The position numbers and the translations under genes are program-made. Under the pieces are notes generated by a model. That model had not been told where the DNA came from, searched no databases, and was given only the letters and a program-made list of their open reading frames with translations. Positions 1,909 to 58,813 of a stretch of DNA of 64,000 nucleotides are shown here, in pieces (position 1 is the first letter of the stretch; each line of letters opens with the position of its first letter). Source of the stretch: Naegleria gruberi (Eukaryota); the NCBI GenBank assembly GCA_000004985.1, contig GG738883.1; one strand, written 5' to 3'.

Positions 1909-2828
1909 TTTCTTCTTGACGAACTATTGTATTTACAAGTGTATTAAATTATTACTATTATAATTCTATTATATTTTGATGATGATTGTTATATTATTTA
2001 TAACTTGAATTCCTTTTTTTCAATAAATTAATAAAAATCAATGTAAACTGTTGTTGGTGTTCTTTTAATTTTTTCTAAAGAGACAAAAAATCGTAGAGAT
2101 TAAAAAACGAGTTAATGCATCTATTTTTAGACCATTCTTAATAAAAGTGCGCCAAAAGTTTCCAATTCGAACTCCTCAAAGATTCTAAGGAATAGTTAAA
2201 CTTGGCTTCTACTAATTCGAAACCAAAACACGTCATAATCTTTCATCCATCACTCAATTCCCAAACGAATTCTTAAGAAGAAACTCAAATGTTAGATTTA
2301 AACTATTAAACGTTTTGATGAACGATAAAACCTAATGTTCAATATCTTTAGACATGCTTGATTTGAAACAATTATTTCATTCAAAAAATGTCTCAACTCT
2401 CCAAATCAATGGAAGCCTCTGAATATCAGAATTGATAAGGCTTTTATGCGGACTGAAAAATTATATTTTGTATGATCCGATCATATATGAACATTATTTG
2501 GAATTTAAGCGACGATTATGAGTGTTATTCTCAGTGAGTGGTGATAACTCAGGAGCACCTTCTGTTGATCCAAACTTTGAGAATGCAACAATTTATGGAA
2601 GCCATGGATGAGTAAGAATTATCATGTTTTCGCTGGACTACACTGAACATACACTCTTCACCAAAATGTTCACATACAACTTAAATAAATCTTTTGTCTC
2701 GATTCTATATTATTTGTCTCACCGACAAATTTTCTTGTACATTTTCAAAAAGGCTTGAGAATTCCCAACTCTTAAAAGCCTTTTAAATAGCCTTTCATCA
2801 ACCATTCAACACTAGCTATTCAAAAAAA

Positions 2829-4265
2829 ATGTCACAACATCAAGACAAAGAAACTATGCAACAATGTGCTCCATCACATGGTGACAATGGTTCGGAAGAG
2901 TTTATTTCGGTTGATGAAGTCAATAAAGCTTCAGAATCAAGTGCTTCCGATTCAATGATCATGGATGACAAACAAGTGAATTCTGACGAAAATGCTGCAA
3001 TTTATGAGAAGAAAATTCCAAAAGCTTTAATCGAGTTGAAGAAAATATTTTCTGATGATTTTGATTTTGAAGTGTTGAAGAATACGTATGGATTGAGTAA
3101 GAATGAGGCTCTGGTTGAGGGGATTGAAAAGGTAATTGTACAGGAAGGGGAAGGATTGGAAGCAAAACCAGGTTCTATCATTAGATGTAAGTGAAAGAAT
3201 TGAGTTTTTATTTGAATAATATAATTGAACATTCGAATAATAATAGTTTTGGAAGCCTGTGTAGTATTTTTTAAAAGAAATGAATTTAGTGATTGGGAAT
3301 TTCTTATTAGTTCTAATACATTGCTTCAGGAAAATAGATTGAAATTGAATAAGGTTCCACCAGTATTTTTCAAATGTATTCACACTCTCAAGTTGGGTGA
3401 GCGAGCCTTTTTTAAAATTCATAAGGATTTGTATCCAGAGTTGAAGGTTACTCGTTTGGATCCAGTTCAGGATGATGTGGAAACTACAAAATTAATTGAC
3501 CTTCTTAAATGCCACGATTATTATGGAGTTCAATATATCAGCATTACACATTTGGAATTGAAGGAGGCACCTTCACCAAAGGCATCCTTTGAAGAACATC
3601 TCGAGCAAATCAGTAAGAAGAGACTTGAAGGAAATGTGCTCTTTAAGGAATGCTCATTTGCTAAAGCATTGAAAACATACAATACTGGAATTATTTTCGT
3701 TAATGAGGCCAAGTTAGATGATGGTAAAATTGATGAACAAAAGGCAATACTGAAAGAAGAACGTATCAAGCTCTTAACCAATATTGTCAGATGCCAAAAC
3801 TCACTTAACAATGAAAAGAATCACAAGCTATGCCTTGATACTTGTGACAAGATTCTCTTCTACGAGCCAGAAAACCACAATGCATTCTATTTTAAAGCCA
3901 AAACTTACAATACACTCGACGATTATTCAAGAGGTCTTGAATGTATGGAAAAGGCAAAACACTATTTTTCCACTTACCAACAAAAGAATAGCAGTGATCC
4001 AATTCAACAAAAGAAGGACGCTGAACTGAAAAGCAGAATGGAAATTATTGAAAGGCAATTACTCAAAAAGAAGAAACTCCAAGAAGTACAGGACAATAAG
4101 CTTATGAAATCCAAAATGACTAACATGTTCTCTGAGGAACTCTATGCTGATACAGAACCATATGATGAGGAAGAGTATTGGAGAAAACAGCAAGAGGAAG
4201 ATGAAAGACTGGGCCGTAAGCCATGGTTCATGTCAGATGGCACCATTCACTATCAACAATTGTAA
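2829..4265 (+). CDS. FKBP-like PPIase domain plus TPR-repeat protein (FKBP/AIP/TTC9-like), two exons
   Basis: Exon 1 is 2829-3186. A GTAAGT donor sits at 3187 and the intron ends at the AG at 3245-3246; an alternative acceptor at 3263-3264 stays in frame. Exon 2 runs to the TAA at 4265. An FKBP-like block ('GLSKNEALVEG...GSIIR', 'TLKLGERAFFKIHKDLYPE') is followed by TPR-like repeats ('KRLEGNVLFKECSFAKALKTYNTG'). Confidence 0.55.
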
Positions 4266-53411: not shown

Positions 53412-54817
53412 TTACAAATTCTTATGGTAAAAAGTCACCAATAATTCCTTAAACTTATTCAGATTATTGAATTGGAATGCAATGTGATTATTACAAAAGT
53501 GTCGAGTTCTGGTGGATTCTTGAAAGCTCTCTGGGTATACAATGGTGCCCATATAGGATTGGACACTCTCTGGATTGTACTTATTCTTTGAGACTGATTC
53601 CATGGTTGCTTTGAGACAATCTTCTTGATTAGAGCTTGGAACTATCGAATCACCAACTGTTTGCAAGAAGAAAATTGTTCGATTATTGGAAAGGTTTACA
53701 TTTTTTAAGAGCTCAATTGGATCGTTGTGAAATGGGGGAAAACCAAAGTGAGAAACTTTGAGAGGTGAGACGCTCTTGATAGTTTCCAATCCAAGACTTG
53801 CAATAGGATCACTGGAGACCATTGCCTTAGCTCCAAACAAAAGTGTCTGATAGACGTTACAAGGAGGTGAATCAAGGAATGCAATTTTAATTCGATTCTC
53901 TTTGGCAAATGCAATTGCTGAAGTGGCAGCTCCCTACAATTATTTCAACAATTATTTAAATAGTCTAACAAATTTCACACTTACCATTGAGCTACCAAAG
54001 AGTCCAACATTATTAGTCTCATTGAGAAATGTAAATCTTTCCAATAAATAATCAAAAGCTCCTAAAACATCCAAATGTTCAAAATTTCCAAAGCTCACAA
54101 ACTTGATTGGCTCAAATAATGATGAATCACCATGATTTCTCAAATCAATTGATAATACATTATATCCTGCATGATATAAAATTCCAGCAGGTAATAAGCT
54201 ATCATATTTTAATCGACAAACTCTGTATCCATGAACAACAATTGCAAACTTAGAAGTTGAATTGATGATATCCTGTTTGTATAATGTTCCAACAATATTT
54301 GCAGTTCCTATTTCAATTATTCCAACATTCATTCGAACAATTTGAAATTAAACTTACCTAATCCTTGAACCCAATCCACAGGTCGACTCTTAAATTTTAC
54401 AATCTCAGTCTTTTCTGAATTAACATAGAAAGGAGCCAATTTCTCATACCATTGACTCTCTGGTTCAGTCAACGGAGGACAATCATATAACAGTGTGAAA
54501 TTTTGAGGAGAATTTTCTCTGAAATATTTACAATTCTCAGGCGCAATTTCAAAAGCAACATCAAATAAATAATTACCCAAACAGAACCATCCAACCACAA
54601 ACAAAGCACCAAAGAATAATAATCCAGTAATGCACAAAATGGAAAGTGTTGAGATGGCCACAATAATTTTACGTTTTCTGGTGGATGTTGTTGATGATTG
54701 TTGATGATAGTAGGTCTCCAATGTTGCAGGATCATCATGAGTGTGGTCATCCTCTAACTTATCAAAGGATGAATATGAATGATGATGAGGTCGAGTAACA
54801 AGTGAGCTTCCTGACAT
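53412..54817 (-). CDS. membrane-anchored alpha/beta-hydrolase (ABHD/Hydrolase_4-like serine hydrolase), three exons
   Basis: Exons on the minus strand are 54817-54358, 54307-53985 and 53933-53412. Introns are 54357-54308 (GTAAGT...AATAG) and 53984-53934 (GTAAGT...TTGTAG). The N-terminus has a TM segment. 'AIVVHGYRV...IDLRNHGDS' is followed by the spliced nucleophile elbow 'GLFGSSMGAATS' (GxSxG). Confidence 0.7.
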
Positions 54818-54863: not shown

Positions 54864-55040
54864 CAATGAGAGCATTTTATCTCTAAACACAAATAAAAAA
54901 TTAATTACACAAATTTTTTGTGAATATTTGTGCTGAATTGTGTTAAAATATTTTCACAAATTTGTGTTTGAGTTTGTGAAGACAGGCCATTTTATCTTGC
55001 ACAAATACATATTTTTATTAAAATTATTCCAACTAATGTC
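54864..55040. repeat. left arm of a long imperfect inverted repeat (foldback)
   Basis: 'TGAGAGCATTTTATCTCTAAACACAAATAAAAAATTAATTACACA...CAGGCCATTTTATCTTGCACAAATA' is mirrored, as its reverse complement, at 55501-55660. Confidence 0.75.
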
Positions 55041-55500
55041 TATCTCAATAGAAGGTATAAGTTGAAATCAGAAAGAATTTCTACAATATGTTGATTCGAA
55101 TGTAATGTATCCTAATTTAATTAGTGATGATGGAGTTGGTTCTGGTGGTGCGGAATCAATGAAAGCATGCTCCAAAAACAAACTGTTTTGTTCCAAATAT
55201 TTAATTATTCCATCTGTTACTGCTTTCCCTCTTTATTTCACTTGAATCTTGGGTTGTTGGTGGTGTTGGTGTTGGTTTATCTGATGAAGGTGTTCTTCTT
55301 ACATTTTTTAATATTTAATTAATAAAAAATGTATTAAACTTCTCCTTCATCAAACGGGAGAAGAAATCAGCAACCATTAGAACCCGATTCATGTCCAATT
55401 CTTGCAACAACAATATTGATATCGGATCACATATTTCAAGATCAACGACGAATGAACTTTTACTACTAGATTCAAAGAAAACAACCTAAGATTCAAGACC

Positions 55501-55660
55501 ACAATAATTTATTATTTTAATAAAATACTTTTGTGTTTTCACAAATATTTGTGCAAGATAAAATGGTCTGTCTACACAAACACAAATCACAAATTTTTAA
55601 ATCTGTGTAATTAATTTTTATTTGTGTTTAGAGATAAAATGCTCTCAATAAGAATCTTTT
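55501..55660. repeat. right arm of the inverted repeat
   Basis: The reverse complement of 55501-55660 is about 85% identical to 54864-55040, with one ~35-bp indel. Confidence 0.75.
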
Positions 55661-55740: not shown

Positions 55741-56460
55741 ATGCAACAACTTGACGAAGGAATTGACGAAGAAATCAACAGCAATTATCAACAAACAGAA
55801 ATATCCAACTCGGAATTGAATGAAAATTCCAATTCACCACAATTATCTATCAAGATTATCACATTCGGAGTATTGCATGGTAAAATTCCAAAGAATAGTT
55901 ATGATGTCTTGTACAATTTACAAGAACTTCCAAATCCTCTGACTGCACAAGCTAGAAAGAAGATGACTGGACTTTCAAAAGAGTTGAGAGAGGATTTCAT
56001 TTCCAATACAATGGTTAAATCTCATTTTGAAACATCGTATAGAGAAATTGTTGGAAAGTTGAATGAAAAATTAAAAGAATTGAGAAATATTGCTGTAGAA
56101 TTGGAGGATAAACCAGAGGAAGAGAAGGAAACCAAAGAAGATGAGGAAGAAAGTGAAGAAAATGAGGAAGACGAAGATGATGAGGAAGAAATTGAAGATG
56201 AAGACGAAGAAGAAGATGAAGAGGATGATGAGGAAGAAGATACTGATGAAAATACCTTTGTTATTGCTGTATGTTGTCACAAGGGAAAGCACAGATCTGT
56301 TTCATTTGCAGAAATTCTCAAAGAAAAGCTCACCTCAGATTCAACACTTCGTTCCTCAATTAGTTCCCTAAATGTTGTCCACAGGGATGTTCATAAGAAG
56401 GGTGCTTCCAACAATAACTCACGAGGCTCCCACAAGAGCAAATTCTTCAATGACTACTAA
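55741..56460 (+). CDS. protein with a bacterial RapZ (YhbJ/YvcJ) C-terminal-domain-like fold, interrupted by a long acidic (Glu/Asp) insertion
   Basis: 'SIKIITFGVLHGKIPKNSYDVLYNLQELPNP' parallels RapZ 'SFGFKYGIP.DAD.VFDVRFLPNPH'. 'FVIAVCCHKGKHRSVSFAEIL' parallels RapZ 'LTVAIGCTGGKHRSVYIAE'. No P-loop NTPase domain is present. Confidence 0.55.
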   Translation: MQQLDEGIDEEINSNYQQTEISNSELNENSNSPQLSIKIITFGVLHGKIPKNSYDVLYNLQELPNPLTAQARKKMTGLSKELREDFISNTMVKSHFETSYREIVGKLNEKLKELRNIAVELEDKPEEEKETKEDEEESEENEEDEDDEEEIEDEDEEEDEEDDEEEDTDENTFVIAVCCHKGKHRSVSFAEILKEKLTSDSTLRSSISSLNVVHRDVHKKGASNNNSRGSHKSKFFNDY

Positions 56461-56531: not shown

Positions 56532-56837
56532 ATGTCTCAAAGTCAACAATGGCTTCGTAAAATTCTCTACTATATGCTCCATCTGATATTCGGAGGCAAT
56601 CAAGCCTACACATTCAAGCCAGGAGATTCTGTTCTTGTGATTGAAATTGGAAAGGATTTCGTCAAGTATTTTAAATTGACAAAACCAGAAGAACATGTGA
56701 CGAATGGAAAATCAATAACAAATGGAAAACAACTTGAAAATTATCAAAAACAATCTAATTATGGAGGAACCTTTTTGAATGTAAAGAGTTTGATGCCACC
56801 TTCTTCATCTTCCGATCATTCCATTCAAATTATTTGA
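56532..56837 (+). CDS. hypothetical small protein
   Basis: The 101-aa ORF has an ATG at 56532. It has a KOW-like 'FKPGDSVLVIEIGKD' stretch and no firm assignment. Confidence 0.3.
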   Translation: MSQSQQWLRKILYYMLHLIFGGNQAYTFKPGDSVLVIEIGKDFVKYFKLTKPEEHVTNGKSITNGKQLENYQKQSNYGGTFLNVKSLMPPSSSSDHSIQII

Positions 56838-57010: not shown

Positions 57011-57586
57011 ATGTCTTTTGATCGTTGGATTCGTACAGGATCAATCACTTCAACAAATTTACCAACTCAACCTCACTTTGGATTGGATAATCCAAGAATT
57101 TCCTTGGGTTTGGAAAAGGACCTTCCAGAAATTACAAACAAGATTTTCGATCGATTATTAAATTATCACGTCTGTGCTGAGAATCAAGTCAATGAATTAC
57201 TTCAACAATTTGAATATAATAAGGTATTGGAAAAATCAGAAAAATCTCTGAATGAAGTGGACAAACATGTTGAGCAATCCACACAAAAGATTGTACAATC
57301 AATTGCTACTTTTGATGAAATTAATCCCGAAATTCAGAAAACTATTTCAGTCTCTCTGGCCTATGCACAAGATTGGATGAATAAGAAGACGAAGAGTCAA
57401 CAACCTCAGAAACCATCCTATCCAATTCATTCCCAATCATCTCTTCCTCCAACTGTTAATACTACAACACAACAATCAACAACAACTCCAACTACTTCAT
57501 CATCATCAACAACAACCCCTGTACAGCAAACAACTCCTTCCAATGAAGATCAATCTACAACAACAGCTTCCTCGGATAATAATTAA
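57011..57586 (+). CDS. hypothetical coiled-coil protein with a Thr/Ser/Gln-rich tail
   Basis: The 191-aa ORF has an ATG at 57011. It could be a small BLOC-1/BORC-like subunit, but that is not established. Confidence 0.45.
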   Translation: MSFDRWIRTGSITSTNLPTQPHFGLDNPRISLGLEKDLPEITNKIFDRLLNYHVCAENQVNELLQQFEYNKVLEKSEKSLNEVDKHVEQSTQKIVQSIATFDEINPEIQKTISVSLAYAQDWMNKKTKSQQPQKPSYPIHSQSSLPPTVNTTTQQSTTTPTTSSSSTTTPVQQTTPSNEDQSTTTASSDNN

Positions 57587-57652: not shown

Positions 57653-58813
57653 ATGAACATTTCAAAACATAAAAAAATGGGAAACAAGTCGTCATTGGCT
57701 AAACGTGAAGGAGAACATGATTTGGATTTTTGTGAAAAATTGCAAGTAAAGAAACAAGATTCACTATCAAATGTTGATGAAGATGATGAGGATGAAGAAA
57801 AGAAAATTGAAAAATTGGATCCGATCTTGTCATCGTTAAATTATGATGTCATTTCTGAAGTTATTAGCTTTTTGGATGTAAAAAATCAACTTTTGGTGTG
57901 TTCTAGCTCGAAAGCATTGTTTAATGAATTTATTGGAACGGATTCGTATAACAAGTATTTCTATTCATGTGCTACGAAACATGCAATACCATCAATTAAT
58001 GACATGTCACTGCTAGATCACTTATTTAAAACAGCTAAGAGGGAATTTAAATCGTCACTCAATGAGGAGGAAATAATTGTTAAATTTAATAGAATATGGA
58101 GGAAACTGTTGAATATTTTGATTGAAACTCAATCATTTAAATTTAATTCATCACTTCCCAACATTGCATGCGAGGAGGATAGCCATTTATTAAGCTACCA
58201 AGGACAATCATTTGGAAATTTCACCTTCTCAATGGAAGCTCCATCAAACCTTAGCGAATTGTACGATAGTTCACAAAGTTTCTCTTCAGAAGAGCACCAG
58301 TTCCTTTTTAATTTTGAAATTGTAACAAAAGATCAAACCAGAAATATTTCTATTGGAATGGGTGACAAGGAAGTGAAGGATTTGAATTGTTCATCTCGAT
58401 TTCTTGGATTTCCAGACAATTCTCTATCCTATTCAAGTGATGGCTCAATAAGATTTAAAATAGTCGAGTCACTTAGGTATGAAATATCGCTGCTTCCCTA
58501 TAAACCAGGTGATCTAATTTCCATGCATGTCAAATCAAAACCCTACACAAAAGGCAAAGAGGTCTTTTACTCTTATCAAGTGAATTTCTTCTGTAATGGA
58601 CATTTTCTTCCTTACCTTGAAGGAGAGGAACAAAAACCATGCCCTCAATTTGATTGTCTGTGTCCTTTGTATCCTTCCTTTACATTGCATTCACCTGGTG
58701 ATTCTGTGAGGATGCTCTTCTCTAGGTCTTCACATAACAATCCTGCTGTTCATCACAAAAAGGCATTGGAACGTATTTTTGCCTTCATGTTGGAATATAA
58801 TTTGTTAAGTTAA
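57653..58813 (+). CDS. F-box-like plus SPRY/B30.2 domain protein; a possible alternative start at 57677 would give a myristoylatable MGNKSS
   Basis: The F-box-like region is 'LDPILSSLNYDVISEVISFLDVKNQLLV'. The SPRY-like region is 'ISIGMGDKEV...LSYSSDGSIRFKIVESLRY...PGDLISMHV'. Confidence 0.55.
   Translation: MNISKHKKMGNKSSLAKREGEHDLDFCEKLQVKKQDSLSNVDEDDEDEEKKIEKLDPILSSLNYDVISEVISFLDVKNQLLVCSSSKALFNEFIGTDSYNKYFYSCATKHAIPSINDMSLLDHLFKTAKREFKSSLNEEEIIVKFNRIWRKLLNILIETQSFKFNSSLPNIACEEDSHLLSYQGQSFGNFTFSMEAPSNLSELYDSSQSFSSEEHQFLFNFEIVTKDQTRNISIGMGDKEVKDLNCSSRFLGFPDNSLSYSSDGSIRFKIVESLRYEISLLPYKPGDLISMHVKSKPYTKGKEVFYSYQVNFFCNGHFLPYLEGEEQKPCPQFDCLCPLYPSFTLHSPGDSVRMLFSRSSHNNPAVHHKKALERIFAFMLEYNLLS

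Follow-up and report, generated by a model that had tools for sequence, protein, structure and literature searches.

RapZ has been studied almost wholly as a small-RNA adaptor of enterobacteria, and neither the conserved pocket nor the essential Cys247 has yet been explained. In crystals of the Escherichia coli protein this pocket, formed by C247, H252, R253, H190 and the backbone of T248 and G249, holds malonate and sulphate (PMC5737377), and in the RapZ:GlmZ complex RNA backbone phosphates enter the same pocket, which is also the proposed site for glucosamine-6-phosphate (GlcN6P) (PMC9841335). The C247A and even the C247S variants of RapZ are inactive, and the authors of that work propose a 'specialised catalytic function' of the thiol and describe GlcN6P in the pocket as apparently 'chemically transformed' (PMC9841335). 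GlcN6P is bound by the isolated C-terminal domain (CTD), and conservation of the pocket extends far outside the Enterobacteriaceae (PMC7073468), while the RNA-binding tail, with its motif RxRxKNxQxRHRTxxKRK (PMC7525490), is confined to the Enterobacteriaceae (PMC7073468, PMC7525490). The tetramer in which RapZ is assembled requires the N-terminal domain (PMC5737377). Here we describe a gene from a 64-kb stretch of Naegleria gruberi DNA (contig GG738883.1; the whole stretch is referred to below as the window) that encodes nothing but the RapZ C-terminal, phosphate-binding domain.

The gene is a 720-nt open reading frame (ORF) at positions 55741–56460 of the plus strand, stop codon included, which consists of one exon and specifies a 239-aa protein. 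A Pfam scan of this protein gave a match to PF22740 (PapZ_C, 'RapZ C-terminal domain') of 57.4 bits (E 2.1e-15), against a curated gathering cutoff of 27 bits, in two stretches flanking an insert; when the insert was deleted, the match became continuous, with 65.7 bits over profile positions 2–120 of 121. A PDB-wide phmmer search with the 239-aa protein returned RapZ chains only and aligned them at both conserved blocks. The resemblance of two blocks to RapZ, noted in a preliminary description of this locus, is therefore borne out by the PF22740 profile and the phmmer alignment alike. That description had also noted the lack of a nucleoside triphosphatase (NTPase) domain, and we found neither a Walker A motif in a motif check of the protein nor a match to any NTPase or N-terminal domain in the Pfam scan. 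The NCBIfam model for full-length RapZ (NF003828 / PRK05416) scored 45.7 bits against a cutoff of 244, with the best stretch restricted to model positions 236–277; the protein is a homologue of the RapZ CTD and, lacking the N-terminal domain, falls outside the full-length RapZ/YvcJ family. An AlphaFold2 model, for which a 65-sequence alignment served as input, predicts the three-dimensional fold of the RapZ CTD, with predicted local distance difference test (pLDDT) values above 90 at residues ~31–120 and ~171–220, and with disorder at the N-terminus, at residues ~123–170 and over the last ~20 residues. The parts of the gene are as follows:

55741–55839, plus strand: N-terminal extension, residues 1–33, predicted to be disordered (pLDDT 53–60) and mildly acidic, differing in both length and sequence among family members.
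55840–56097, plus strand: first half of the predicted RapZ-CTD fold, residues 34–119 (pLDDT >90; secondary structure by DSSP), aligned to RapZ residues 157–215.
56098–56253, plus strand: polyacidic insert, residues 120–171, with 41 of 52 residues Asp or Glu (pLDDT 55–66), between the long helix and the active-loop strand.
56254–56388, plus strand: second half of the predicted RapZ-CTD fold, residues 172–216 (pLDDT >92), with pocket residues matching E. coli C247, G250, H252 and R253 (PMC5737377; PMC9841335).
56275–56298, plus strand: CX5R[ST]-type loop CHKGKHRS at the strand-to-helix junction, a putative phosphate-ester binding or catalytic site on the basis of the sequence and of DSPc and hhalign matches.
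56389–56457, plus strand: C-terminal tail, residues 217–239, predicted to be disordered (pLDDT 45–54) and net basic (5 Lys/Arg versus 1 Asp/Glu).

No obvious targeting-peptide character was seen in the N-terminal extension. According to DSSP on the model, the first half of the fold comprises strands at residues 35–43 and 56–59, the LPNP motif at 63–66, the sequence TGLSK at 76–80 and a long helix at 90–122; G77 is invariant and PNP nearly invariant across the eukaryotic family described below. The second half comprises a strand at 172–179, the loop C179-H-K-G182-K-H184-R185-S186, a helix at 185–199 and a strand at 207–214 ending in H214-R215-D216. The polyacidic insert that had been said to split the domain is present, but it measures about 52 residues rather than 80; the remaining spacing is an ordered helix that RapZ possesses as well. 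Two further ORFs called across this region, 56071–56292 on the minus strand and 56141–56371 on the plus strand, arise from the GAA/GAT-rich insert as frame shadows and were rejected as genes.

A scan of bacterial and archaeal genomes (185,579) gave 549 loci, of which the best 80 were compared with the Naegleria protein. In 101 aligned sequences (24 eukaryotic and 77 bacterial) the Cys, Gly, His, Arg and Ser of the C-x2-G-[KR]-H-R-S loop are invariant without exception, and so is the Gly of the TG motif; H-R-D is invariant in the eukaryotes and present in 75 of the 77 bacterial sequences. The start of the loop reads C-T-G-G in bacteria versus C-[E/H/R/A]-x-G in eukaryotes. By this alignment C179, H184 and R185 of the Naegleria protein are the equivalents of C247, H252 and R253 of E. 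coli RapZ. The two conserved blocks, which had been taken for an RNA-binding domain, are the sulphate/malonate/GlcN6P pocket; they are a metabolite or phosphate pocket and not the RNA-binding determinant, because the pocket is widely conserved while the RNA-binding tail is limited to the Enterobacteriaceae. Compared with the CTD of E. coli RapZ (YhbJ; PDB 5O5S, PF22740), the Naegleria protein lacks the N-terminal P-loop NTPase, and so the domain-swapped tetramer, and it carries a 52-aa acidic insert before the active-loop strand; its tail, HRDVHKKGASNNNSRGSHKSKFFNDY, is without the enterobacterial RNA-binding motif.

The Naegleria protein has the RapZ-CTD fold, as modelled, and an intact anion-binding loop within a eukaryote-specific single-domain architecture. 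The best explanation, to which we assign a probability of about 0.6, is that this NTPase-less RapZ_C protein is a putative binder of a phosphate ester, held in the C179–R185 pocket. The ligand would be a phosphosugar such as GlcN6P or an RNA phosphate. The invariant Cys might take part in chemistry, in the manner of a cysteine phosphatase or phosphotransferase, instead of making a passive contact, and the disordered acidic loop and basic tail could be accessories that gate the basic face or access to it, or that recruit partners. A putative catalytic, cysteine-phosphatase-like activity would make up somewhat less than half of this pocket-ligand explanation. The Naegleria protein cannot act as RapZ does, because the domain that builds the tetramer is absent and the partner system is bacterial. 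To our knowledge, eukaryotes possess neither RNase E nor the small RNAs GlmY and GlmZ, and we know of no QseE/QseF partners in the Naegleria host.

Three points weigh against phosphate-ester binding as just proposed. For no eukaryotic member has a ligand, an activity or a partner been measured. The pocket, moreover, is incompletely conserved: E. coli H190 corresponds to Leu67 and T248-G249 to His180-Lys181 (the contacts of T248 and G249 in RapZ being made by the backbone; PMC5737377), and the near-invariant Arg61 of the family, the equivalent of E. coli R184 and an Arg in at least 90% of members, is Gln61 in Naegleria; because of these three replacements, the specificity for substrate or ligand may differ from that for GlcN6P. 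Finally, the contig of a related strain has a premature stop in the RapZ_C gene which, if real, would make the gene dispensable at least there.

The Naegleria gene does not stand alone. When 1.84 billion representative proteins were searched exhaustively with phmmer, 154 matches were obtained, most of them 130–260 aa long; [LIVF]PNP and C-x2-G-x-H-R-S are present in nearly all, and the Walker A motif is absent from the top 70. A word-indexed search with the full protein had been swamped by the acidic insert (8000 low-complexity candidates, among them 2 real matches), and the same search without the insert gave 1 match; the problem was resolved by the exhaustive search together with a profile built from insert-stripped members, which found at least 670 clusters at E≤1e-5. 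PF22740 was the sole Pfam domain in 120 of the 120 relatives listed from the profile search. Two matches of the exhaustive search, P0112 and P0118, were discarded as false positives arising from acidic runs. Homologues were found in Heterolobosea (Willaertia magna), Amoebozoa (Nematostelium gracile), a choanoflagellate (Acanthoeca spectabilis) and fungi, the latter comprising chytrids (Nowakowskiella), Ascomycota and Basidiomycota, with many species of the Eurotiales, Chaetothyriales and Coniochaeta and many Agaricomycetes. The Nematostelium and Acanthoeca sequences derive from transcriptomes, and contamination is possible for those two. Examples of the family are C9374_005547 of Naegleria lovaniensis, KAL9647172 of W. 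magna, XP_050200486 of Schizophyllum commune, and many Aspergillus and Penicillium entries.

The Naegleria protein belongs to this family by its lone PF22740 domain and by its grouping with eukaryotic members in the domain tree. Like the other eukaryotic RapZ_C proteins it is an NTPase-less single domain with an invariant pocket and HRD, and in most of these proteins a basic tail and an acidic insert in the corresponding position are found as well. Its identity is 42–53% to the N. lovaniensis protein, depending on the measure, ~40% to that of Willaertia and 22–37% to fungal members, and it departs from the family consensus in having Gln and Thr in place of R61 and P68. Eukaryotic members carry automatic names, 'RapZ C-terminal domain-containing protein' in UniProt and 'RNase adaptor protein for sRNA GlmZ degradation' at JGI, and full-text literature searches found no paper discussing any of them. 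The preliminary description's remark that eukaryotic homologues had not been described is accordingly right as regards the literature, but not as regards the databases: the NTPase-less architecture in eukaryotes is already catalogued, yet unstudied. One further protein from the exhaustive search, P0104 (284 aa), has a bacterial-type RapZ CTD (CTGGRHRS, LPNPY) behind an N-terminus that is not a P-loop NTPase and that, judged by eye only, is flavodoxin- or NAD(P)H-dehydrogenase-like; P0104 would be a second, different route of replacing the RapZ N-terminal domain.

The loop of the Naegleria protein, C179-HKGKH-R185-S186, fits the C-X5-R-[S/T] signature of cysteine-dependent phosphatases, and in the model it lies, as it does in those enzymes, between a preceding strand (172–179) and a following helix (185–199). 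In permissive Pfam scans of 31 family members, two families other than PapZ_C recurred, DSPc in 6 members and the Rit1 DUSP-like domain in 7; every other family appeared once. The window protein itself matched the Rit1 DUSP-like domain weakly (E 0.0095), and the family consensus matched Pfam DSPc over profile positions 20–91 with E 2.5e-4 and 21.3 bits, below the cutoff of 33.5; the family Cys presumably falls at the catalytic Cys position in this register. When the family profile was aligned by hhalign with VHR and PRL-1 (PDB-verified sequences), the helix, the strand and CX5R came into register, CCHKGKHRS being paired with HCREGYSRS of VHR at an uncalibrated P of 0.003–0.03 over 36–45 columns; four unrelated alpha/beta proteins used as controls aligned over at most 7 columns. 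The family profile retrieved no phosphatase from the PDB sequences at E≤10.

There are also differences. Neither the DSP/PTP superfamily (DSPc PF00782, VHR/DUSP3, PRL-1) nor the Rit1 DUSP-like domain (PF04179) is matched at its curated threshold; in comparison with DSP/PTP enzymes an equivalent of the general acid (WPD/D-loop) was not identified in the Naegleria protein, the sheet is smaller, and the residue before the Arg of the loop is His (C-x2-G-x-H-R), whereas it is usually small or hydrophobic in DSP/PTP loops. The fructose-6-phosphate-binding subdomain of 6-phosphofructokinase is more distant, with a root-mean-square deviation above 4 Å, 9–14% identity and no sequence-profile signal. 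Phosphatase activity of the RapZ homologues YvcJ and HpaP appears in earlier reports, as these are cited by PMC7525490 and PMC9742497. The DSP-like profile and fold matches, weak but recurrent, support a resemblance of the pocket to the P-loop of cysteine phosphatases. A more far-reaching proposal, which we put forward tentatively and with the odds against it, is that the RapZ CTD, including its eukaryotic clade, would be an unrecognised and highly divergent branch of CX5R cysteine phosphatases; its ancestral role would then be Cys chemistry on a phosphosugar or RNA phosphate, the RNase-E adaptor role would be late, and the eukaryotic proteins would be orphan phosphatases or phosphotransferases.

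The alternative that survives best, though we consider it unlikely, is that the protein would be an RNA-binding adaptor in the manner of RapZ, in which a CTD dimer grips structured RNA by way of its pocket and basic tail, the acidic insert serves as an autoinhibitory mimic of nucleic acid and the Cys is non-catalytic. The charge pattern of the family is in its favor. In 169 of 228 NTPase-less relatives the long helix and the active-loop strand are likewise separated by an insert of at least 10 aa, which is net acidic in 160 of the 169, the tail after HRD is net positive in 153 of 193 members, and the Naegleria protein follows this pattern on both counts, with a net charge of +6 on its RapZ-CTD core. 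What had looked like a peculiarity of the Naegleria gene is instead a variable acidic loop of the whole family. Its length and composition vary among members, and in-frame indels distinguish even two closely related Naegleria strains; because the Willaertia and choanoflagellate members have no insert, the loop must have been expanded repeatedly. It also fits an adaptor that in the RapZ:GlmZ complex the RNA backbone phosphates sit in exactly this pocket (PMC9841335), that the CTD dimer alone binds RNA (PMC7073468), and that the Rit1 DUSP-like domain, which comes from a tRNA-modifying enzyme, recurs among the weak matches. However, the enterobacterial tail motif (PMC7525490) is absent from the Naegleria protein, the position of the RNA-contacting R184 of E. 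coli is occupied by Gln61 despite the prevalence of Arg in the family, and the lack of an N-terminal domain precludes the GlmZ-presenting tetramer. Nor does electrostatic RNA binding alone readily account for a Cys that is strictly invariant or for the inactive C247S variant of RapZ.

It is far less probable that the gene is a decaying or non-functional relic, a notion that draws on an allele of a related strain. A metagenomic contig (L082) is 95–98% identical to the window and carries the RapZ_C homologue at its positions 2000–2734, where codon 79, for the Ser of the conserved TGLSK, has undergone a TCA to TAA nonsense change; the gene caller consequently split this allele into products of 83 and 149 aa. 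The allele differs further by 15 nt inserted close to the N-terminus and by in-frame indels within the acidic insert, which evolves fast in this way. Against decay stand the intact reading frame in the window and the preservation of the core and its invariant pocket across Naegleria, Willaertia, fungi and amoebae. Moreover, the differences between the strains outside the insert and the N-terminus are mostly synonymous (5 synonymous and 1 non-synonymous in core and tail), and the nonsense change was seen in one metagenome assembly only and is perhaps an error. The TAA codon reflects an error of the assembly or else a null allele that arose recently.

The provenance of the gene was addressed through its neighborhood and through trees of the domain. 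GC content is uniform at ~34% over the whole 64 kb, and the flanking genes are eukaryotic, encoding a beta-adaptin, an Aa_trans transporter, NELF-B/COBRA1, an RRM-PWI protein and a SNARE. No record identical to the 239-aa protein was retrieved by an exact look-up; the closest named homologue is the above-mentioned N. lovaniensis C9374_005547, whose locus (L001) has the gene order of the window, namely adaptin, Aa_trans, COBRA1 on the opposite strand and then the RapZ_C gene. This orthologue is interrupted within the domain by a 72-nt phase-2 GT-AG intron (L001 8261–8332), after the codons for ...KPLR. Because of the uniform GC, the eukaryotic neighbors and the synteny and intron in N. lovaniensis, contamination and recent transfer are excluded, and the RapZ_C gene is a resident eukaryotic gene, as the preliminary description had supposed. 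No intron exists at the matching site of the window (~55975–55990), which indicates intron gain or loss within the genus Naegleria.

The CTDs of the best 80 bacterial loci are 26–34% identical to the Naegleria core. Essentially all of these 80 encode full-length RapZ of ~290 aa, including a Walker A motif of the form GxxGxG[KR][ST], the few seemingly short ORFs being artefacts of crude start-codon calling, and a bacterial donor with a standalone CTD was sought and not found among the best 80 of the 549 loci. In neighbor-joining trees of the domain a single split separates the 24 eukaryotic from the 77 bacterial sequences; the eukaryote-only split, which includes the Naegleria protein, was recovered in 168 of 200 bootstraps with an HMM-guided alignment and in 193 of 200 with an independent MAFFT alignment, and Naegleria and Willaertia were grouped in 178 of 200 replicates. 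These trees are distance-based and rest on 119–135 columns, so that the result is provisional. Because the eukaryotic sequences are split from the 77 bacterial CTDs in both trees, the sequence comparison favors the view that the NTPase-less eukaryotic family arose once, rather than an acquisition specific to Naegleria. Of the two origins left open earlier, a divergent ancient family therefore fits better than horizontal acquisition in its recent form, and the whole eukaryotic clade may go back to an early transfer from bacteria with later spread between eukaryotes. Recent bacterial transfer into Naegleria, or bacterial contamination or mis-assembly, which could appeal to the first description of the domain in bacteria and to an identity with the best bacterial CTDs resembling that with fungal members, is effectively refuted by the resident setting of the gene, its occurrence in Willaertia, the monophyly of the eukaryotic sequences and the presence of the standalone architecture in 0 of the best 80 bacterial matches.

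Several other features were noted around the gene. A 101-aa ORF (56532–56837, plus strand) begins 72 nt 3' of it in the same orientation and shares 55% identity with an ORF (L001 8949–9242) that follows the N. lovaniensis orthologue at a distance of 25 nt; the 101-aa ORF occurs in L082 too (2806–3111). It matched no Pfam family and is in tight, conserved linkage with the RapZ_C gene. Three flanking ORFs, at 57011–57586 (plus strand, 191 aa), 57653–58813 (plus strand, 386 aa) and 54329–54817 (minus strand, 162 aa), had no Pfam match and are probably lineage-specific Naegleria genes; the 162-aa ORF is likewise among those called in L082, and in N. lovaniensis the gene is followed by ORFs comparable in size. 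An element of ~781 bp (54867–55647), ~95 bp upstream of the RapZ_C ATG, is bounded by perfect 33-nt terminal inverted repeats (54867–54899 and 55615–55647) and contains a sub-terminal 56-nt inverted repeat that is 82% complementary. It is missing from the L082 contig, no second copy was found within the 64-kb window, and it looks like a polymorphic insertion of the miniature inverted-repeat transposable element type.

Three things are new here: the eukaryotic family is monophyletic and widespread, it is the RapZ pocket that the family conserves, and this pocket looks like the P-loop of cysteine phosphatases. The family keeps the pocket domain only, without the NTPase, RNase E or GlmY/GlmZ, which speaks for the pocket as the primordial functional unit, and its single-domain proteins are simple material for a direct study of the ligand and chemistry of the pocket. 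The annotation 'RNase adaptor protein for sRNA GlmZ degradation' on eukaryotic genes almost certainly misstates their function. Should the resemblance to cysteine phosphatases be true, these proteins would constitute a new phosphatase-like family in fungi and in free-living or pathogenic amoebae, including pathogenic Naegleria and Aspergillus.
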